From Escherichia coli (GTDB lineage: Bacteria > Pseudomonadota > Gammaproteobacteria > Enterobacterales > Enterobacteriaceae), in assembly GCF_044324875.1 (NCBI RefSeq), contig NZ_CP172185.1: a stretch of DNA of 64,000 nt; one strand, given 5' to 3'. The position numbers were made by a program, and so were the translations under genes. Positions 1,320-62,357 of the stretch are shown piece after piece. How positions within the stretch are numbered: position 1 is the stretch's first letter; each line of letters opens with the position of its first letter. Below the pieces are notes generated by a model. It was not told the DNA's origin and ran no database searches. It saw only the letters and a program-made list of their open reading frames with translations.

Positions 1320-4300
1320 TTATCCTTTAAAGCAACGGCGGATCACCACAAAGAACACTGGCACGAAGAAGATTGCCAGCAACGTTGCAGAAACCATCCC
1401 GCCCATTACCCCGATACCCACTGCGTTCTGCGCGCCACTGCCGGCACCGTTACTGATAGCTAGCGGTAATACGCCGAGAATAAAGGCGAGAGAGGTCATC
1501 AGGATAGGACGCAGACGCATACGTACTGCCATTAGTGTCGCTTCAACAACACCTTTACCCTCTTTCTCCATGAGATCTTTAGCGAACTCAACAATCAATA
1601 TAGCGTTTTTAGCCGACAAGCCAATTGTCGTTAGCAAGCCCACCATAAAGTAGACGTCATTTTTTTGATTAAAGAGTGTCGCCGCCAGTAGCACGCCGAC
1701 AATCCCTAACGGCACGACCAACATAACCGAGACAGGAATTGACCAGCTTTCATAGAGTGCAGCAAGGCACAGGAAAACAACCACAAAGGAAATTGCTACC
1801 AGAGCGGGAGCCTGGTTTCCCGATAAGCGTTCCTGATATGACATACCCGTCCAGTCATAACCAATGCCAGCTGGTAATTGTGATGCAAGGTTTTCCATCA
1901 ACGCCATGGCATCGCCGGAACTGGTTCCTGGCGCGGCTTCCCCCTGAATCTCCATTGACGGCAGACCGTTGTAGCGCTCCAGTCGCGGAGAGCCATACAC
2001 CCAATGTGCAGTGGTAAAGGCCGAGAATGGTACCATTTCGCCGTTGGCGCTGCGGACATAAAGTTTATGGACATCTTCTGGCAGCATACGGAATTTGGCA
2101 TCCGCCTGAACATACACCTTTTTCACGCGACCACGGTCAATGAAGTCGTTAACGTAAGTCCCACCCAACGCCGTTGAAATGGTCTGATTGATGTCAGAAA
2201 GTGAAACACCTAATGCCTGCGCCTTTTCCTGGTCAACTTCCAGTTTAAACTGCGCGGTGTCTTCCAGACCATTAGGACGCACGCTGACTAAGCTGGCAGG
2301 ATGTTGCGCCGCCATACAAAGCAACTGGTTACGGGCCTGGGTTAGGGCATCGTGACCCAGCCCAGCCTGATCAATTAACTCAAAGTCGAAACCCGTTGCC
2401 GTGCCCAGTTCAACAATGGCTGGCATATTGAATGGAATGACAAAACCGTCGCGGATCTTGCCCAATTCCATTTTGGCACGATGGATTACTGCTTCCGCAC
2501 TGTTTTCGTCACCACTACGCTCTTCCCACGGTTTCAGACTGACGAAGGCCATACCGGCGTTTTGTGCCTGGCCGCTGAAGCTAAAGCCGTTAACCGTAAA
2601 GACACTTTCAACGTTCGCTTTTTCGTTCTTCAGATAGTAATCCGTCACTTGATCCAACACTTTTTGCGTCCGCTCTTGCGTCGCGCCAGCGGGTAACTGA
2701 ATCATGGTCAGAAAGACACCCTGATCCTCTTCAGGTAAGAAGGAAGACGGAAGGCGTAAAAACAACACCACCATTCCTGCAACAATCAGCGCATAGATCA
2801 GTAAATATCGTCCTGTGGAACCGAGGATTTTGCCGACGCTGTTGGTGTAGTGGTTAACGCTATGATCGAAGGTGGTATTAAACCAGCCGAAGAAACCGCC
2901 CTTATTTTCGTGATGCTCAGCAGAGACGGGTTTGAGCAGTGTTGCACATAACGCTGGGGTAAGAATCAATGCCACCAGAACAGAAAGCGCCATTGCCGAA
3001 ACGATGGTGATAGAGAACTGGCGGTAAATTGCCCCAGTAGAACCGCCGAAGAATGCCATTGGAATAAATACCGCTGACAGCACCATCGCGATACCCACCA
3101 GTGCGCCCTGGATTTGCGACATTGATTTTTCCGTCGCTTCTTTTGGCGGGAGCTTATCCTCCATCATCACGCGCTCGACGTTCTCCACCACCACTATCGC
3201 ATCATCGACGAGCAGCCCGATGGCAAGCACCATCCCGAACATCGTTAGTGTATTGATGGAGTAACCAAAAGCGGCGAGGATGGCAAACGTCCCTAACAAC
3301 ACTACGGGTACCGCAATGGTGGGGATCAGCGTTGCTCGCATATTCTGCAAGAACAGATACATCACCAGGAACACCAGCATAATGGCTTCGAACAGCGTTT
3401 TTACCACTTCGTGAATAGAAAGCTGGACGAATGGCGTGGTGTCATAAGGGTAGAGAACCTTCATTCCCTGTGGGAAGAATGGCTGTAATTCCGCCAGTTT
3501 TGCCTTAATGGCTTTCGCGGTATCGAGAGCATTCGCGCCGGTTGCCAGCTTAATACCCAGGCCCGCCGCCGGTTTTCCGTTGATGCGAGCGATAACGTTA
3601 TAGTTTTCACCGCCAAGTTCAACCCGTGCGACATCTTTCAGGCGTACCACCGAGCCGTCACTGTTTACGCGCAGGGTCACTTTGCCGAATTCTTCCGGAT
3701 TTTTTAACCGCGTTTGAGCAATAATCGAGGCATTCAACTGTTGCCCTGGTAACGCTGGCGTTCCGCCCAACTGTCCGGCAGCGATCTGGTCGTTCTGTAC
3801 CCTTAACTGGTTAATCACATCAACCGGCGTCAATTTATATTTGTTTAGCAGATCGGCGTCCAACCAGATACGCATCGCATACTGTGCGCCGAAAAGTTGT
3901 ACGTCACCGACGCCATTCAGACGGCTAAGCGTATCTTTAACGTTAGAGGCCACATAGTCCGAGATATCGTCCTGTGTGGTGCCTGGGTTATCAGAGACAA
4001 AGCCCGCCACCATCAAATAGCTGCTACTGGACTTTTCAACACTGATCCCCTGCTGCTGTACCTCCTGCGGCAGCAACGGCGTGGCGAGCTGGAGTTTGTT
4101 CTGCACCTGCACTTGCGCGATATCTGGATCGGTCCCAGACTGGAAGGTAAGGGTAATTGTCACGCTACCGGCGGAATCGCTGGTGGAGGACATATACATC
4201 AGGTTATCGATACCGTTCATATTCTGTTCGATAACCTGCGTCACCGTATCCTGCACGGTCTGCGCATCAGCGCCCGGATAGTTTGCTGAAACAGAAACCG

Positions 4301-4424
4301 CAGGCGGTGCAATGGTTGGGTATTGGGCGACGGGCAATTGTAGGATCGCCAGTGCGCCCGCCATCATCAGAATAATGGCCAGCACCCATGCAAATATCGG
4401 TCGTCGAATAAAAAAGTTTGCCAT
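1320..4424 (-). CDS. acrF: RND multidrug efflux permease AcrF
   Basis: ORF track 1320..4424 (1034 aa) [23 protein letters not shown]...; AcrB/AcrF family 12-TM transporter; length matches AcrF. Confidence 0.96.
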
Positions 4425-5991: not shown

Positions 5992-6654
5992 ATGGCAAAA
6001 AGAACCAAAGCTGAAGCCCTGAAGACCCGGCAAGAACTGATTGAAACTGCCATCGCCCAGTTTGCGCAGCGTGGCGTAAGCAAGACGACGCTCAACGACA
6101 TTGCCGACGCCGCTAACGTTACGCGTGGCGCTATCTACTGGCACTTCGAGAACAAGACCCAACTGTTTAATGAGATGTGGTTGCAACAGCCTTCATTGCG
6201 GGAGTTAATCCAGGAACACTTGACGGCTGGATTAGAGCATGACCCGTTTCAGCAATTGCGTGAAAAATTGATTGTCGGCTTGCAATATATTGCCAAAATT
6301 CCCCGCCAGCAGGCGTTGCTGAAAATCTTATATCATAAATGTGAATTTAATGATGAGATGCTGGCCGAGGGGGTAATACGCGAAAAGATGGGCTTTAATC
6401 CGCAGACTCTACGCGAAGTATTGCAGGCATGTCAGCAACAAGGTTGTGTAGCAAATAATCTCGATTTAGATGTTGTGATGATTATTATTGATGGTGCCTT
6501 CAGCGGAATTGTTCAAAACTGGTTAATGAATATGGCGGGTTATGATCTTTATAAACAAGCACCCGCACTGGTCGATAACGTATTAAGAATGTTCATGCCA
6601 GATGAAAACATAACGAAATTAATTCATCAAACGAATGAATTAAGTGTCATATAA
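5992..6654 (+). CDS. acrS: TetR-family repressor of acrEF/acrAB (AcrS/EnvR)
   Basis: ORF track 5992..6654 (220 aa) MAKRTKAEALKTRQELIETAIAQFAQRGVSKTTLNDIADAANVTRGAIYWHF (TetR HTH); divergent from acrE; ATG confirmed at 5992. Confidence 0.93.
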   Translation: MAKRTKAEALKTRQELIETAIAQFAQRGVSKTTLNDIADAANVTRGAIYWHFENKTQLFNEMWLQQPSLRELIQEHLTAGLEHDPFQQLREKLIVGLQYIAKIPRQQALLKILYHKCEFNDEMLAEGVIREKMGFNPQTLREVLQACQQQGCVANNLDLDVVMIIIDGAFSGIVQNWLMNMAGYDLYKQAPALVDNVLRMFMPDENITKLIHQTNELSVI

Positions 6655-6656
6655 AT

Positions 6657-6836
6657 TCACATTCTGTCCTGAAAATTCAGTTCGTCACAGTTAACCAGTT
6701 TTAGTGGATTAACTGAGTTCATATTGCGGCATTTGTCTGTTTCTGTTGCCAGCAGTTCAATCCACTGCATCAGTAAAGTATCAAACAGAAAAACGAAGAC
6801 AGCGAAAACGACGAGCCACCAATACTTGCGAATCAT
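6657..6836 (-). CDS. yhdU: Small membrane protein YhdU
   Basis: ORF track 6657..6863; internal Met start chosen (MIRKYWWLVVFAVFVFLFDTLLMQ..., 59 aa, hydrophobic helix); position between acrS and yhdJ as in K-12. Confidence 0.65.
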   Translation of the reverse strand: MIRKYWWLVVFAVFVFLFDTLLMQWIELLATETDKCRNMNSVNPLKLVNCDELNFQDRM

Positions 6837-6919
6837 TACCTGAGCCTGTGCATGTTTAACCAAGTCTGGCAGGAAATATACACGAAATGAATAATCTGAA
6901 AACCAGGCTTACACTTCCT

Positions 6920-7804
6920 TTACTTTGCAATGAGATCGGGGTCAACTTCGCTTAACCTGCTTCGTTTTGACAGGTTGCCGGTCTTTCTTTTTTTCACTTT
7001 CGCCAGTTCTTCCGCAGAGTAATGCGACGCGACATCCAGCCGTCGAAGCCCCATTTTGATGTACTCGCTGTTAATCTCAATACCAATGAATTTTCGCCCG
7101 CTGGCGACGGCTACGGCACCGGTAGTAAAGCTACCAGAAAACGGGTCGAGAACGATATCGCCTGGGTTGGAAGAGGCGAGAATAATGCGTTTCAGTAAGG
7201 CTTCCGGTTTTTGCGTCGGGTGATTCTCATATTCATCCATCAAATAACGCACGCGCGGAAAATCCCAGACGTTACCCGGTACTTTTTGATGATTGTAAGG
7301 CTGTGGAGGATTTTTGCGATAATCGATCAACGCGCGCTGCGATCCGGTTTTGGCTTCTACCAGAATAGCATCACCGTTGAACGTGTAGTTCTTTGCGTCT
7401 TTCACCATCATCAGGATGGGTTCGTACATGGAGCCGTAGTGTTTTTTCGCCTGCACTCCAGAACTGTCATATGACCAGACGATGCGACTTTTGATGGTAA
7501 AAAGCTTGCGGCACTGGAGATCGATAAAGGGCATGTTTTCCGTGCTGTTCATGATGTACATGCTGCCCTGCTTTTTCAGAACGCGGTGGCACTCTTCAAT
7601 CACTTCAAACAGCCAGTCGATAAACAGATCTTCTTTCCAGGCTTCGATCAGACCATCAAAATTTTTACCGATGTTATACGGTGGGTCGGCAAAGATCAGA
7701 TCGACACTTTCGGCGGGGATCTTTTTAAGTTCGGTTAATGCATCACCCTGGATGATGGTCTTTGCTTCATTACCAAATCGGGTCGGTTCACATCCTGTTC
7801 TCAT
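6920..7804 (-). CDS. yhdJ: DNA adenine (N6) methyltransferase YhdJ
   Basis: ORF track 6920..7810 (296 aa); contains DPPY motif (FADPPYNIG) and C-terminal FAGSFTTG-like SAM motif; start set at third codon (MRTGCEP...) to give 294 aa; alternative start 7810. Confidence 0.9.
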   Translation of the reverse strand: MRTGCEPTRFGNEAKTIIQGDALTELKKIPAESVDLIFADPPYNIGKNFDGLIEAWKEDLFIDWLFEVIEECHRVLKKQGSMYIMNSTENMPFIDLQCRKLFTIKSRIVWSYDSSGVQAKKHYGSMYEPILMMVKDAKNYTFNGDAILVEAKTGSQRALIDYRKNPPQPYNHQKVPGNVWDFPRVRYLMDEYENHPTQKPEALLKRIILASSNPGDIVLDPFSGSFTTGAVAVASGRKFIGIEINSEYIKMGLRRLDVASHYSAEELAKVKKRKTGNLSKRSRLSEVDPDLIAK

Positions 7805-7828
7805 GGTCACTCCCTTTGTGACACCTAT

Positions 7829-7865
7829 AAAAAAGGCGCTTCCCCATGCCGAGTAGCGCCTTTTT
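7829..7865 (-). terminator. Intrinsic terminator after fis
   Basis: Hairpin ggcgct-(14 nt)-agcgcc at 7835-7860 flanked by A-run (7829-7834) and T-run (7861-7865); bidirectional in form. Confidence 0.7.
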
Positions 7866-7889
7866 AATCAAGCATTTAGCTAACCTGAA

Positions 7890-8186
7890 TTAGTTCATGC
7901 CGTATTTTTTCAATTTTTTACGCAGCGTACCACGGTTGATGCCCATCATCAGCGCAGCACGGGTCTGGTTACCACGGGTGTATTGCATCACCATGTCCAA
8001 CAGGGGCTGTTCTACTTCAGCCAGTACCAGCTCATAGAGGTCATTCACATCCTGACCGTTCAGTTGAGCAAAATAGTTCTTCAGTGCCTGTTTAACCGAG
8101 TCACGCAGGGGTTTTTGGGTTACCTGATCCTGAGAGTTAACGGTAGAAACGGTCAGTACGTCAGAATTTACGCGTTGTTCGAACAT
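7890..8186 (-). CDS. fis: Nucleoid-associated protein Fis
   Basis: ORF track 7890..8186 (98 aa) [98 protein letters not shown], matching Fis as I recall it. Confidence 0.98.
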
Positions 8187-8211
8187 AGTTCTGTCAGCTC
8201 TTTATTTCTGT

Positions 8212-9177
8212 TTACGCAAAATTTTCGAAGTATGCCTCCAACGCCTCCAGCTGTTCGCTGGCATCCTCAATGGCGTTGAATGTGCGCCGAAACTGGTCAT
8301 TTGGAGCGTGTTCCTGGAGATACCAGGAAACGTGTTTACGTGCAATTCGGTACCCTTTTGCCGGACCATAAAAGTCATGCAGTTCCCGAACGTGCGCGCA
8401 AAGCAAGCGCTTAACCTCTGCCAAAGGCAGCGGGGGCAGCAACTCCCCAGTGTCCAGATAATGCTGGATTTCCCGAAAGATCCAGGGTCTTCCCTGAGCT
8501 GCGCGGCCTATCATCAGGGCATCCGCCCCTGTATAGTCGAGCACAGCTCTGGCTTTAAGCGGGTCAGTAATGTCGCCATTCGCGATAACCGGAATGGAAA
8601 CTTTCTGCTTAACTGCCCGAATACTGTCGTACTCAGCTTCTCCATTGAACAAACAGGCGCGTGTACGGCCATGAATGGTCAGAGCCTGAATGCCACAGTC
8701 TTCAGCCAGTTGGGCAATCTCTTCGCAGTTACGGTGTTCCGGTGCCCAGCCGGTGCGAATCTTCAGGGTAACAGGAACGTCCACTGCATTGACGACCTCG
8801 GTAAGGATCGATTTAACGACATCCGGGTACTGCAAGAGGGCTGAACCTGCGAGCTTGCGATTCACTTTTTTAGCCGGGCAACCCATATTGATATCAATAA
8901 TCTGGGCACCGCTTTCCACGTTAATACGTGCTGCATCTGCCATTTCTTTCGGATCGCTACCAGCAATTTGCACGGTGCGAATACCGGGTTCATCAATGTG
9001 CACCATCCGTAAACGAGATTTGTCGCTTTCCCAAACCTGTGGGTTAGAAGACATCATCTCGGATACTGTCAATCCGGCTCCCATCTCGTAGCACAACGTC
9101 CGAAAAGGTCTGTCTGTAATGCCAGCCATGGGCGCTGCGATCAGGCGATTTCTGAGCTGATATTGTCCGATGCGCAT
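8212..9177 (-). CDS. dusB: tRNA-dihydrouridine synthase B
   Basis: ORF track 8212..9177 (321 aa) [26 protein letters not shown]...; co-operonic upstream of fis. Confidence 0.95.
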
Positions 9178-41421: not shown

Positions 41422-41515
41422 TGGCCTAAGTCCGAATCCAGCCTCTTTTCCTTCTCACTACAGCATTATTCTCTGTAAACGGTATTTTCCTCGCACTATA
41501 GAAAAGGATATCGCG

Positions 41516-42310
41516 ATGGGATTTTTTAATACATTGTTTAATAAGAAAGAATCATTAACGCTGTCGAATAAATGGGAATTCTTTATTACCACGGTGGAAG
41601 ATAATGTAACGGGCATACGTGTAGATATTGGCGCAATTGAGGACGAAAAATTTGATCGTCTTATCCACACATGGTTTTTACGTGTCCGTTATACTGACTG
41701 TTATGAAAACGGTTTTCCGCAACCTGATGAAACACAGCGTTTAAATCGTATTGAGGACTGGCTTGAGGCGCAGGGTAAAACACTACCGATCTGGCTAGTG
41801 GGTGTGGTTACGCAACAAGGTTCACGCGATTTTGTTTTCCAGTCAGAAAAAGACCTGGACTGGGAAAAGACATTGGATAAATTGTTGGCAGGTGGCCCGG
41901 AGCTCGCTTGCAGCTTTAATGAGAGTAAAAACGACCACGGAAATTACTACCGCCAGTTTTTGTATCCAACCAAATACGACTGGAACTGGATACACGATTC
42001 CCGAGTATGCCGCGGGTTACTGGAGCATGGTGACGATTTGACTCTCCCACGCACCATCGATTATTACGCGACATTGCCGACAGAAACTGCGGCCCACGCC
42101 TTTGTGGAGGACGTGACGAAATTGCCATATGGCATCACGCTGGTGAGCATTCGGATGAACGACCAACAACCGGAGTATATGGCGTCATTGATTAACACTG
42201 ATGCTCCGGAACAATGGCATATGACCGATATCACATGCCAGCTTACCGATTTGGCGGAAAAGCATGGAGGTAGTTTTGATGGCTGGGGCGCACCGATAGC
42301 AACGGCATAA
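41516..42310 (+). CDS. Hypothetical protein, 264 aa; putative DUF695 (N-terminal) + RraB-like (C-terminal) domains; not present at this locus in K-12 as I recall it
   Basis: Long ORF 41285..42310 in track; the upstream part overlaps rpsI and its terminator, so start set at first ATG after the terminator (41516), which has an AAGGA RBS 7 bp upstream. Translation MGFFNTLFNKKESLTLSNKWEFFITTVEDNVTGIRVDIGAIED...LTDLAEKHGGSFDGWGAPIATA. Domain call is from motif resemblance by memory, not from a search. Confidence 0.8.
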   Translation: MGFFNTLFNKKESLTLSNKWEFFITTVEDNVTGIRVDIGAIEDEKFDRLIHTWFLRVRYTDCYENGFPQPDETQRLNRIEDWLEAQGKTLPIWLVGVVTQQGSRDFVFQSEKDLDWEKTLDKLLAGGPELACSFNESKNDHGNYYRQFLYPTKYDWNWIHDSRVCRGLLEHGDDLTLPRTIDYYATLPTETAAHAFVEDVTKLPYGITLVSIRMNDQQPEYMASLINTDAPEQWHMTDITCQLTDLAEKHGGSFDGWGAPIATA

Positions 42311-42578
42311 AGGTTTAAAACAACATTCCCGGTGGGGACTAAGTCAAGCATTTCAGACTAAAGCGCATCTCTTTTTCCCCATTTCCGGCATCGACTCACC
42401 ACAAAGGTCGCAAAATCTGGTAAACTATCATCCAATTTTCTGCCCAAATGTCGGGTATTGCTCATTTTTTGTTTAATTTTCGAACAAAGAGAGTCGTTCC
42501 TTACTGGGTAACACAACTTCTGACTGGCCACCTGGTGGCTGGTAGCAGTAAAAATTCTGACTATACCTGGAGGTTTTC

Positions 42579-51045: not shown

Positions 51046-52134
51046 TTAACGGCGTCTATAGCCTTCCTCTAGCACCGCCTGTGTTCGAACGAGTTCATCT
51101 GCGAGTCGTTTCTCATCAGGTAGTTGCATCTTATATTCGCTTGCCAGAACGGTGTTAGGCAAACCTGCCAGAGCATAATGCGCTTCGCCGGCTCCTTTCT
51201 CTGCACAGAGAATCAGACCGATGGGCGGATTTTCATCCGGTAGCGTCCAGTGATCTTTGGCGTAGTTGAGATACATATTCATCTGTCCGGCATCGCTATA
51301 GCTGAATTTGCCCACTTTTAGATCGACGATTAGCAGGCAGCATAAACGGCGGTGGAAAAACAGCAGATCGACACGAAACCAGTTATCATCAATGCGTAAC
51401 CTTCGCTGCCGACCAACAAAGGCAAAATCATCCCCAAGTTCCAGCATGAAATCCATCAGGTGGTTGATCAGCGCCTCCTCGAAATCAGATTCTGAATATT
51501 CATCTTTCAATTCCAGAAATTCGAGCACAAAGGGATCGCGTATCGCCTGCTGCGGAAGAATATGCGTCTCGGTAGGAGCGTGTTGTTGCAGCATGGCTGA
51601 TTTGTCATGTGACAGTAGTGTTCGCTCATAAAATTGGGTCGCAATTTGCCGCTCTAGCTGGCGAACAGACCAGCCACAGCGGAGCGTCTCTTTTTCATAA
51701 AAGCTACGAGCGTCAGCGTTTTTAACAGAAAGCAAACGGACGTAAGTGGACCAGGGCCGGGGGAAAGATTTGGCAGACAGCGTCTGCCAAATCTTTCCCG
51801 ATGGGAATTCTGCAGACGGTGTCTGCGGAATTTCAACATGTTGAAAAAAGAGGTAAAAAAGTCTCATTTGGCGCAAGTTTTTTGCAGAGAACCCACGCTT
51901 ATACCTTAGACATAAATCCTTTGATAGTCGCTTGATTAGCTGCGCACCATACGCAGCCCTGGCCTCGCCACCTTGTTCAAATTCGACAATTCGTCGGCCA
52001 ATTTCCCAGTATGTCGCGGTCATCAGCGCGTTAACGCTACGTACCGTTTCCGTCCGGGCGCTATCGACCAGGTGAATAATACCGTCGTGGATTTGCTGGT
52101 AGCCTGTTGAGGTTCTCTCTGAGAGCGATTCCAT
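51046..52134 (-). CDS. yhcG: DUF1016-family putative PD-(D/E)xK nuclease YhcG
   Basis: ORF track 51046..52134 (362 aa) MESLSERTSTGYQQIHDGIIHLVDSARTETVRSVNALMTATYWEIGRRIVEFEQ...; ATG confirmed at 52134; convergent with yhcH. Confidence 0.85.
   Translation of the reverse strand: MESLSERTSTGYQQIHDGIIHLVDSARTETVRSVNALMTATYWEIGRRIVEFEQGGEARAAYGAQLIKRLSKDLCLRYKRGFSAKNLRQMRLFYLFFQHVEIPQTPSAEFPSGKIWQTLSAKSFPRPWSTYVRLLSVKNADARSFYEKETLRCGWSVRQLERQIATQFYERTLLSHDKSAMLQQHAPTETHILPQQAIRDPFVLEFLELKDEYSESDFEEALINHLMDFMLELGDDFAFVGRQRRLRIDDNWFRVDLLFFHRRLCCLLIVDLKVGKFSYSDAGQMNMYLNYAKDHWTLPDENPPIGLILCAEKGAGEAHYALAGLPNTVLASEYKMQLPDEKRLADELVRTQAVLEEGYRRR
51761..51834. repeat. Two adjacent palindromes inside the yhcG coding sequence
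   Basis: P1 51761-51799: gggaaagatttggcagac-agc-gtctgccaaatctttccc (perfect 18-bp arms). P2 51803-51834: gggaattctgcagac-ggt-gtctgcggaatttc (14-bp arms, 2 mismatches). Both share the CAGAC-N3-GTCTG core with the intergenic copy at 51005-51031. Confidence 0.8.
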
Positions 52135-52317
52135 TATCTGTCCCTTTATATGGCGCTGCGTTGAATAATGGAATCAGCTATACGCCGGGCATCTACCGGT
52201 AACAATCCAGATGTGCGTATTACATTGGTTTTCTTCAGATTATGCGAGGCGCTTTCCAGTACGAAAGGAGAATTTCAGCGCCGACTCTTTTCTGAGGAGG
52301 CGGCGCTGGGACAGAGT

Positions 52318-62245: not shown

Positions 62246-62357
62246 CCCCGGCTAGACCGGGGTGCGCGAATACTGCGCCAACACCAGGGAAATCTTGGCT
62301 GCGCCGTAAATTATTATGATGAGTTACAAGGGCACAGCACTGTTTTTCAGGCCGCAC
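62237..62357 (-). ncRNA. arcZ: ArcZ (SraH/RyhA) small regulatory RNA
   Basis: Reverse complement of 62237-62357 reads GTGCGGCCTGAAAAACAGTGCTGTGCCCTTGTAACTCATCATAATAATTTACGGCGCAGCCAAGATTTCCCTGGTGTTGGCGCAGTATTCGCGCACCCCGGTCTAGCCGGGGTCATTTTTT, which matches the ArcZ sequence as I recall it, including its terminator; 3' end overlaps the arcB stop codon. Confidence 0.88.

Follow-up and report, generated by a model that had tools for sequence, protein, structure and literature searches.

The best-described counterpart of the gene considered here is YhdJ (b3262) of Escherichia coli K-12, also called M.EcoKII, for which the primary paper is Broadbent et al. 2007 (J Bacteriol 189:4325). M.EcoKII is an orphan methyltransferase whose target is ATGC(m6A)T and which is silent in K-12 (PMC4444293; PMC13337833). 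Both the K-12 enzyme and its Salmonella orthologue place m6A at the second A of ATGCAT and thereby protect DNA from NsiI (PMC4444293; PMC9239280). The cloned K-12 enzyme is active (PMC4444293), as is YhdJ in vivo in Salmonella (PMC9239280), and deletion of the gene, which is dispensable, has no clear phenotype (PMC4444293; PMC9239280). ATGCAT methylation was undetected in K-12 ER2796 (PMC4444293) and also, according to published methylomes, in E2348/69 and in three environmental strains. In Salmonella, more YhdJ sites are methylated in mid-exponential than in late stationary phase, and only 61% of them are ever methylated (bioRxiv 10.64898/2026.01.27.702048).

Other described enzymes resemble YhdJ in class, in circumstances or in sequence. 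CcrM of Caulobacter is, like YhdJ, an orphan, and M.RsrI and M.MboIIA are other β-class m6A methylases; CcrM, however, targets GANTC, is essential and cell-cycle regulated and possesses an extra C-terminal domain, whereas YhdJ is dispensable. Dcm is likewise a chromosomal orphan conserved in enteric bacteria, its target is shared with a plasmid-borne system that occurs in its own species (EcoRII), and its deletion, as with yhdJ, has little phenotype. Unlike YhdJ, Dcm is an expressed m5C enzyme, and experiments have demonstrated that it protects against the post-segregational killing exerted by EcoRII. The third counterpart is EcoT22I, an ATGCAT enzyme. Plasmid pEC22 (NC_025058.1) is named as encoding MR.EcoT22I in a publication known here through a later paper that cites it (Elhai 1994, via PMC5052281), and relatives of M.EcoT22I adjoin AvaIII/NsiI-type ATGCAT endonucleases.

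The yhdJ gene and its place behind fis

In the window, that is, the whole 64-kb stretch of E. coli DNA that was analysed, the minus-strand CDS at 6920..7804, which runs from an ATG at 7804 to a stop codon included at 6920, encodes 294 aa and is yhdJ, an orphan β-class N6-adenine DNA methyltransferase of the M.EcoKII type. The protein matches the NCBIfam equivalog NF008572 (PRK11524) with 587.5 bits, against a cutoff of 292, along profile positions 1-294 of 294, and Pfam PF01555 (N6_N4_Mtase) with 215.6 bits, against a cutoff of 26.7 (E=1e-63), from aa 34 to 251 and profile positions 1-218 of 221. The RefSeq annotation of AR_0013 has yhdJ at the matching coordinates. This is the same gene as in K-12, from another strain: the two proteins are 98% identical over 294 residues, the flanking genes are shared, and the spacer between fis and yhdJ is 100% identical. 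The allele differs by six conservative substitutions (H19Q, A24T, A70E, A224S, I235V and T293A), of which A224S brings back the residue that the restriction-linked relatives discussed below have at this position.

The start codon is the ATG, which both RefSeq and the NCBIfam profile use. The ORF finder listed a longer ORF from a GTG at 7810; this is not the real start because it lies inside the Shine-Dalgarno sequence AGGGAG (7810..7815, minus strand), 5 nt upstream of the ATG. RNA folding of the fis-yhdJ region places this Shine-Dalgarno sequence within the loop of a small hairpin.

Both motifs were read directly from the codons. Catalytic motif IV, DPPY (aa 40-43), is encoded by GAC CCA CCG TAT at 7676..7687 (minus strand) and is invariant in 13 of 13 aligned family members, and the SAM-binding motif I, DPFSGSFTTG (aa 220-229), is encoded at 7118..7147 (minus strand). 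The position of DPPY on the N-terminal side of the SAM-binding motif is the β-class order. The GSF variant of motif I is common to the restriction-linked relatives, including the pEC22 methylase, and the motif aligns with the FGVGTTG region of CcrM. Fold class and motif order are shared with CcrM (PDB 6PBD), the best PDB match (E=2e-32), but YhdJ scores 135.5 bits against the CcrM equivalog NF050803, below its cutoff of 830, and the term "CcrM-like" is valid only at the level of enzyme class.

As to the reaction, motif I would bind S-adenosylmethionine and the DPPY loop would carry out N6 methylation of the second adenine of the palindrome ATGCAT after base flipping, the specificity of this allele being predicted from its identity to the K-12 protein. 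A pattern count located one such site in the 5' part of yhdJ itself (7738..7743); it is probably incidental, because Salmonella yhdJ has no such site (PMC9239280 Table 2).

The upstream neighbour is fis (7890..8186, minus strand; NCBIfam Fis equivalog, 180.9 bits, and annotation), the last gene of the dusB-fis operon, whose stop codon lies 85 nt from the yhdJ start. The intrinsic terminator of this operon occupies 7829..7865 (minus strand), as indicated by RNA folding and conservation. It consists of an A-tract, a GGCGCU stem, a 14-nt loop, an AGCGCC stem and U6, the U-tract ending 24 nt 5' of the yhdJ ATG. The hairpin has 11 + 3 bp, and the 96-nt region has an MFE of -29.5 kcal/mol (z = -3.1). 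A simple scan for terminators overlooked it, since that scan admits loops of at most 8 nt. The terminator is kept across five genera, and also in L024, a relative that lacks yhdJ and in which similarity ends directly after the U-tract.

Downstream and on the same strand lies yhdU (6657..6836, minus strand; DUF2556, 59 aa), identified by Pfam PF10831 (E=4e-36), annotation and synteny, which follows yhdJ in Escherichia, Salmonella and Citrobacter. A promoter scan found a promoter-like site (6902-6875, minus strand) in the 83-nt spacer between the two genes. In an Rfam scan for structured RNA at the yhdJ locus, only ArcZ appeared in the window, far off.

The gene order dusB-fis-yhdJ-yhdU-acrS is colinear with K-12 and AR_0013 and also occurs in Salmonella, Citrobacter and E. 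fergusonii, and the arrangement of fis, 85 or 88 nt, and yhdJ is found in these three and in Intestinirhabdus. The entire window is colinear with annotated K-12 and AR_0013 DNA. The original prediction had described an orphan yhdJ known from K-12, carrying DPPY and sitting tightly and conservedly behind the dusB-fis terminator, and all of this stands; the literature and standard annotation already cover yhdJ, the sequence that it targets, its orphan nature and its place after fis. That yhdJ lies on the minus strand is a detail absent from that prediction.

Orphan status and relatives in mobile restriction cassettes

The absence of a restriction partner from the window, claimed from the start, is confirmed. 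Colinearity with K-12 and AR_0013 reveals no annotated restriction gene across the 64 kb, and the adjacent restriction gene that had been named as the contrary observation does not exist, since the neighbours are fis and yhdU. The only nuclease-like gene in the window is yhcG (51046-52134), 43 kb from yhdJ. Relics of a partner were sought by tblastn with four restriction (R) and two controller (C) proteins from distant hosts and with the R and C proteins of pEC22 and C. freundii. At E ≤ 1 these cognate proteins gave no accepted match in the window or in the four orthologous loci (Salmonella, Citrobacter, Intestinirhabdus and E. fergusonii). An Acinetobacter R protein (aa 123-164) aligned with the region opposite yhdU (E=0.86 over the whole window), and this was rejected as a chance match because the position is wrong for a colinear relic. 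Nucleotide similarity between the window and pEC22 is restricted to the methylase gene. Thus, of the components of an EcoT22I-type cassette, the family methylase is present at yhdJ, and the convergent endonuclease gene of about 345 aa and the HTH_3 controller are absent.

PADLOC matched YhdJ only to generic Type II methylase models and YhdU to KwaA at chance level (E=0.005); membership of yhdJ in a known multigene defence system was rejected. The idea that past restriction had left a deficit of ATGCAT was likewise rejected, the 64-kb window containing 12 sites where 11-27 are expected, depending on the model, that is, neither avoidance nor enrichment.

The missing genes are found beside relatives of YhdJ elsewhere. 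Restriction-linked methylases that are 65-74% identical to YhdJ are located on plasmids, satellites and islands, in Marinobacterium, Photobacterium, Nostoc, Acinetobacter plasmids, a C. freundii satellite and E. coli plasmids. In this layout the methylase stands tail-to-tail with a conserved ORF of 343-346 aa, whose family NCBI calls "type II restriction endonuclease", and every complete cassette found has its R and M genes side by side, overlapping tail-to-tail. An HTH_3 controller lies beside the ORF in six of nine loci (Marinobacterium, three Acinetobacter plasmids and two Citrobacter loci). The methylases of the enteric cassettes are 71-74% identical to YhdJ and are carried by small plasmids in E. 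coli, Klebsiella and Enterobacter and by a P4-like satellite in Citrobacter.

M.EcoT22I of pEC22 illustrates the resemblance. It is 73% identical to YhdJ and of the same length class, shares with it unchanged DPPY and DPFSGSFTTG motifs and a basic KKRKT tail, and also passes the YhdJ NCBIfam equivalog; PGAP even gives the plasmid gene the name "yhdJ". The targets match as well, both being ATGCAT. On pEC22, however, the methylase gene overlaps a 343-aa endonuclease gene tail-to-tail, and a 69-aa HTH controller gene precedes the endonuclease, whereas chromosomal YhdJ lacks both genes, has a C-terminus shorter by about 13 aa and occupies a fixed site behind fis. In a neighbor-joining tree of 13 taxa, for which we chose a cyanobacterial root, the orphans of the fis locus form a single clade in 199 of 200 bootstraps, and its sister group consists of the restriction-linked methylases of enteric bacteria. 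By sequence comparison, the closest relatives of chromosomal yhdJ are the methylase halves of mobile EcoT22I-type systems.

This relationship indicates that yhdJ began as the methylase of an EcoT22I/AvaIII-type controller-restriction-methylase cassette and was captured a single time, immediately after the fis terminator, by the common ancestor of Escherichia, Salmonella, Citrobacter and Intestinirhabdus. Of that cassette the methylase has been retained under purifying selection, while its restriction and controller partners have gone completely. Probably no endonuclease reads the ATGCAT mark in this genome, so that methylation would have no restriction consequence. As for the vehicle, PICIs are known to integrate at the 3' end of fis (PMC10111431), and the C. 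freundii cassette is carried by a P4-like satellite. Related satellites with the same AlpA protein are inserted in other genomes between sugar-utilization and other genes, not at fis, and the C. freundii island has only the methylase gene in common with the window. The arrival of yhdJ on a fis-targeting satellite is without support.

Expression behind the terminator

A crude consensus scan found no sigma-70-like site on the minus strand at 7805-8400, a result compatible with a weak or non-sigma-70 promoter inside fis, and no promoter belonging to yhdJ itself turned up in the stretch that separates the end of fis from the terminator, which from so crude a scan is weak negative evidence. Because the start lies only 24 nt past a strong terminator and no promoter-like site precedes it, yhdJ would be transcribed mainly by read-through from the growth-phase-regulated dusB-fis operon. 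Read-through would explain both the undetectable methylation in K-12 and other E. coli strains and the partial methylation in Salmonella, which is higher in exponential phase.

Published data bear on this proposal. Relocated dusB-fis operons raise the transcription of downstream genes in exponential phase (PMC4751926). Against it, in K-12 CSH50 deletion of dusB-fis did not significantly change yhdJ expression, in a comparison whose engineered control already carried a cat cassette between fis and yhdJ (PMC4751926). The fis terminators of Salmonella and E. coli are nearly identical; therefore, the terminator alone fails to explain why Salmonella methylates its sites and K-12 does not. Taken as a whole, yhdJ is very probably a solitary Type II β-class methyltransferase, M.EcoKII, that derives from a captured cassette and would be expressed by read-through.

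Why yhdJ is retained

Of 5426 complete E. coli genomes, 5417 (99.8%) contain yhdJ, as do 57620 of 57705 Salmonella genomes (PMC10111431), and five genera have kept the ORF undamaged together with every motif. All orphan pairs tested show a dN/dS of 0.05-0.12, as low as for the neighbouring genes and the restriction-linked methylases, which denotes purifying selection. A selective benefit, if there is one, is an inference.

One candidate benefit is immunity: ATGCAT sites methylated in advance would blunt the establishment of EcoT22I-family plasmids and satellites, or their post-segregational killing. This idea concerns the reason for retention and is compatible with the capture of a cassette methylase rather than opposed to it. 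It agrees with the circulation of cognate C-R-M cassettes in E. coli, Klebsiella, Enterobacter and Citrobacter, and with purifying selection on a gene that has no known physiological phenotype. Only 3 of the 5426 complete E. coli genomes have the cognate C and R genes, which in all three lie on small plasmids together with a methylase of their own, while the orphan is nearly universal. The precedent of Dcm and EcoRII and a general model (PMC3424554) point the same way, although the parallel between YhdJ-EcoT22I and Dcm-EcoRII is an analogy only. Against it, yhdJ is silent in K-12 and several wild strains, methylation as incomplete as the roughly 61% of sites in Salmonella would give no restriction protection, and the literature searched contained no connection between YhdJ and EcoT22I. 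On balance, immunity is a possible but tentative answer. A more specific form of it appears somewhat doubtful, namely that the yhdJ genes of Escherichia, Salmonella and Citrobacter are domesticated methylases of the M.EcoT22I type that selection retains as a "vaccine" against ATGCAT-cutting cassettes, and that leakage at the fis terminator couples their expression to the surge of fis transcription in early exponential phase.

Unlikely, by comparison, is the proposal that YhdJ acts, as Dam and CcrM do, in epigenetic regulation and that ATGCAT methylation controls transcription or replication under other conditions. The orphan is conserved across genera and shares the β class with CcrM, ATGCAT is the most condition-variable motif of the Salmonella methylome (PMC9239280), and its methylation varies with growth phase (bioRxiv 10.64898/2026.01.27.702048). 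However, deletion of yhdJ in Salmonella altered 12 genes in LB, of which only one has a methylated site, and none in SPI-2 medium, and caused no defect in growth, motility or virulence (PMC9239280). In addition, differentially methylated ATGCAT sites were not associated with expression changes (bioRxiv 10.64898/2026.01.27.702048), the CcrM equivalog score falls far short of its cutoff, and ATGCAT is neither avoided nor enriched in the window.

Still less probable is that yhdJ is a functionless leftover, the silent remnant of a decayed restriction system drifting to loss. Silence in K-12, the lack of a deletion phenotype, the rare E. coli strains in which yhdJ was lost through IS1-associated deletions and the truncation at codon 151 in most strains of S. 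Paratyphi A (PMC9239280) would fit such a course. So would the high dN between E. coli and Salmonella, 0.15 as compared with 0.02-0.03 for dusB and prmA. This reading is largely refuted by the low dN/dS and by the conservation of gene, ORF and motifs described above, and the enzyme is active both when cloned and in vivo in Salmonella. Finally, that YhdJ serves as the modification partner in a working system, with the endonuclease encoded at another place in the genome, outside the window, is hardly credible even though no complete RefSeq E. coli genome is identical to the window (best 99.3-99.6%), because R and M are adjacent in every complete cassette found, cognate R genes in E. coli sit on rare plasmids that bring their own methylase, and a silent methylase could not shield the chromosome from an active endonuclease.

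The preferred reading thus remains that of a captured cassette methylase kept under purifying selection. For cloning hosts meant to be free of methylation, inactivation of yhdJ is needed for certainty, as in ER3413. For the biology of these bacteria, the gene poses the puzzle of a methylase that is silent in E. coli and without phenotype in Salmonella, yet intact under purifying selection across genera, and its link to mobile ATGCAT cassettes, together with the near absence of the cognate endonuclease in E. coli, makes one answer directly testable. If the "vaccine" idea were true, the early-exponential fis burst would coincide with the time of fastest replication and plasmid uptake, and YhdJ would have towards EcoT22I-type cassettes the role that Dcm has towards EcoRII, which would answer why a silent, phenotype-less methylase is so conserved.

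The yhdJ gene and its surroundings

The gene lies on the minus strand, at 6920-7804, and encodes a protein of 294 aa. The ORF list contains a second in-frame start, a GTG at 7810, upstream of the ATG at 7804. The ATG is the true start, because a ribosome-binding site, AGGGAG (7810-7815, minus strand), precedes it with a 5-nt spacing, the GTG falls inside this site, and the ATG is also where RefSeq and the family profile start. The coordinates of the original prediction, which did not state the strand, are thus exact. Its assignment as yhdJ is confirmed by an end-to-end match to the NCBIfam YhdJ equivalog NF008572 (587.5 bits, cut-off 292) and by 98% identity (288/294) to K-12 YhdJ, and the protein scores 215.6 bits against Pfam N6_N4_Mtase (cut-off 26.7). 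The DPPY motif that had been predicted occupies residues 40-43 (7676-7687, minus strand) and is followed by the SAM-binding motif DPFSGSFTTG at residues 220-229 (7118-7147, minus strand). This beta-class motif order is shared with CcrM, whose structure 6PBD is the top YhdJ match among solved structures (E=2e-32). As a member of this family, YhdJ would use SAM to methylate the N6 position of the second adenine of ATGCAT on both strands. The coding sequence of yhdJ itself contains one ATGCAT in its first 70 nt (7738-7743); it is probably incidental, because Salmonella yhdJ has none.

The window is colinear with K-12 at ~3.349-3.420 Mb, in reverse orientation and with ~98% identity. The genes dusB (8212-9177), fis (7890-8186), yhdJ and yhdU (6657-6836) are on the minus strand, and acrS (5992-6654, plus strand) converges on them. 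The 85-nt spacer from the fis stop to the yhdJ start is 100% identical in K-12, in AR_0013 (the closest complete E. coli genome) and in the window, and holds a canonical intrinsic terminator (7829-7865, minus strand) made of an A-tract, a GGCGCU/AGCGCC stem lengthened by A-U pairs, and U6. A simple terminator scan missed it because the 14-nt loop exceeds the 8 nt that the scan permits.

The entire 64-kb window aligned to annotated K-12 or AR_0013, and no restriction enzyme is among the annotated genes, in agreement with the claim that yhdJ has no restriction partner there. The sole nuclease-like gene is yhcG (51046-52134, minus strand; 362 aa, with DUF1016_N and YhcG PDDEXK nuclease domains), at a distance of 43 kb from yhdJ and with no relation to the EcoT22I endonuclease family. 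The PADLOC matches of YhdJ were all to generic Type II methylase models, and nothing meaningful was found among the yhdJ neighbours.

Other features of the window were recorded. The gltF-yhcA-yhcD-yhcE-yhcF block (~7 kb, a cryptic fimbrial cluster), present in K-12, is absent between yhcG and gltD (~52190-52317), and an ORF additional to K-12 lies between rpsI and sspA (41442-42335; DUF695 in the AR_0013 annotation). Both the 8.5-kb sugar-utilisation insert of AR_0013 (yhdT-accC) and its IS4 copy by mdh are missing, and acrF (1320-4424, minus strand), annotated as frameshifted in AR_0013, is an intact ORF of 1034 codons. The ArcZ small RNA (62250-62357, minus strand; Rfam RF00081, 120.8 bits) is the only Rfam family at gathering score.

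Conservation of the fis-yhdJ locus

DNA of yhdJ was found in 5417 of the 5426 complete E. coli genomes, with at least 80% of the gene covered in 5387. The rare E. coli without yhdJ have IS1-associated deletions that run from yhdJ through acrEF up to the yhdW amino-acid-transporter gene. In strains 58-3 and LR-25, IS1 adjoins a deletion of yhdJ (or of the part beyond its 5' stub), yhdU, acrS, acrEF and yhdV; the 66-codon stub in LR-25 is mis-annotated as 'RsmD family RNA methyltransferase'. A 1651-bp acrS-to-dusB query was at least 80% covered in 5281 E. coli genomes, versus 5387 for yhdJ alone, and its matching places outnumbered the records by 116. These figures point to insertions or rearrangements inside the region in ~100 strains; published PICI satellites, for which the 3' end of fis is an integration site (PMC10111431), may account for them.

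The dusB-fis-yhdJ order, with a spacer of 85-88 nt, recurs in Salmonella, Citrobacter portucalensis, Intestinirhabdus alba and E. fergusonii, and a Salmonella survey placed yhdJ downstream of fis in 57620 of 57705 genomes (PMC10111431). The fis terminator is kept in all the aligned spacers, with compensatory stem changes in Intestinirhabdus, so that the conserved placement proposed originally holds in all these genera. A relative with an identical Fis protein and no yhdJ (locus L024) also keeps the terminator, and similarity ends directly after the U-tract, which places the start of the yhdJ segment, on this comparison, directly behind the fis terminator.

The downstream gene yhdU (DUF2556) accompanies yhdJ in Escherichia, Salmonella and Citrobacter, and is not with it in Intestinirhabdus or in any restriction cassette. 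It may be transcribed independently of yhdJ, because a sigma-70-like match (TTTTCA-16 nt-TATATT; 6875-6902, minus strand) lies in the yhdJ-yhdU spacer just upstream of yhdU.

EcoT22I-type cassettes and the descent of yhdJ

Database searches returned enterobacterial orthologues of YhdJ (77-98% identity) and proteins ~70% identical in distant hosts, i.e., Shewanella, Marinobacterium, Photobacterium, Acinetobacter and the cyanobacterium Nostoc. At each distant-host locus examined, the methylase gene has a tail-to-tail overlap with a second gene, whose 343-346-aa product has no Pfam domain and which is usually preceded by the gene of a 69-78-aa HTH_3 protein; this is the classic controller-restriction-methylase layout. 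The first four partner ORFs found, of which one is truncated at a contig end, are mutually 50-56% identical and have in common the long invariant block SDARLFEIVS...RTGRTNANDGGIDFV...FQVTE. Members of the family carry the NCBI name 'type II restriction endonuclease' in Anabaena, Oleiphilus, Cronobacter, Yersinia, Citrobacter, Enterobacter and E. coli. The YhdJ target, ATGCAT, is also the recognition sequence of EcoT22I, AvaIII (from Anabaena) and NsiI. The same cassette is present on small plasmids of E. coli, Klebsiella and Enterobacter, including pEC22 (NC_025058.1), which was published as encoding MR.EcoT22I (Elhai, Cai and Wolk 1994, as cited in PMC5052281 and PMC5034289). The homology between YhdJ and EcoT22I is very probably recorded in REBASE, and a literature search found no papers linking the two.

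Cassettes were also observed on satellites and islands. In C. freundii CP056244.1, an EcoT22I-like cassette and a PvuRts1I-like/SRA nuclease are carried by a P4-like satellite (AlpA, ASH, D5 primase). Both lie downstream of the primase, in the variable cargo region where sister satellites have a retron-type reverse transcriptase and GmrSD. In the marine gammaproteobacteria Marinobacterium and Photobacterium, the island that holds the cassette is small, encodes a large serine recombinase and splits a ChlI/Mg-chelatase (ComM-like) gene, leaving a 436-447-aa part and, on the other side, a 67-74-aa ChlI fragment.

The window YhdJ shows 73% identity with the pEC22 methylase, 74% with that of the C. 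freundii island and 65-68% with the non-enteric cassette methylases. DPPY, a basic KKRKT tail and the unusual GSF form of motif I are common to all of them. The six orphans at the fis locus group as a single clade in a neighbour-joining tree (199/200 bootstraps), sister to the enteric cassette methylases and nested among those of other phyla. Nucleotide similarity between the window and pEC22 is limited to the interior of the methylase gene, and neither the window nor the orthologous loci from four other genera showed any trace of an endonuclease or controller gene. The simplest reading would be that the methylase, either alone or in a cassette whose restriction and controller genes were lost afterwards, was captured once, long ago, directly behind the fis terminator and was then retained under purifying selection. 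Pairwise dN/dS among the orphans is 0.05-0.12, with dS saturated, and is similarly low in cassette methylases (0.04) and neighbouring genes; dN between E. coli and Salmonella is high for yhdJ (0.15) compared with dusB and prmA (0.02-0.03). Such a capture fits the general model in which orphan methylases come from degraded restriction systems (PMC3424554).

Activity, expression and retention of YhdJ

YhdJ is catalogued as an orphan methyltransferase conserved in enteric bacteria (PMC4444293; PMC13337833), as had been said of K-12; the original prediction is supported on every point, and both gene and finding were already known. When overexpressed, YhdJ (M.EcoKII) methylates the second A of ATGCAT and shields DNA from NsiI; in K-12 with an intact chromosomal yhdJ this methylation was undetected, and deletion of the gene gave no phenotype (PMC4444293). 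ATGCAT methylation was not seen in EPEC E2348/69 and three environmental E. coli strains. In Salmonella Typhimurium yhdJ is active: ~500 sites are methylated, all of them lost on yhdJ deletion, which hardly alters transcriptome, growth, motility or virulence (PMC9239280). A 2026 preprint reported that just 61% of the Salmonella YhdJ sites are ever methylated, with a larger number methylated in mid-exponential than in late stationary phase (bioRxiv 10.64898/2026.01.27.702048).

The yhdJ start codon is 24 nt behind the U-tract of a strong terminator, and a crude consensus scan found no sigma-70-like site between it and the end of fis. From this anatomy, yhdJ would probably be transcribed by polymerase leaking past the fis terminator, and that this read-through drives its expression has roughly even odds. 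The idea fits the silence in E. coli, the partial and exponential-phase-biased methylation in Salmonella, and the finding that relocated dusB-fis operons increase transcription of downstream genes in exponential phase (PMC4751926). Against it, the spacer alignment shows near-identical terminators in E. coli and Salmonella, which therefore cannot account for the difference between them, and, measured against an engineered control strain, yhdJ expression was not significantly altered when dusB-fis was deleted (PMC4751926).

As for why yhdJ is kept, the most attractive hypothesis is that it may protect against EcoT22I-type cassettes still in circulation, by analogy with Dcm and EcoRII (PMC3424554). 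The cognate controller and restriction genes are rare, being found in 3 of the 5426 complete E. coli genomes and only on plasmids, of 4.4-6.2 kb, each with its own methylase. A silent or partially methylating YhdJ, however, should protect poorly. That YhdJ acts as a 'vaccine against EcoT22I-type cassettes', expressed through fis read-through, is considered unlikely, and would be of moderate interest if true.
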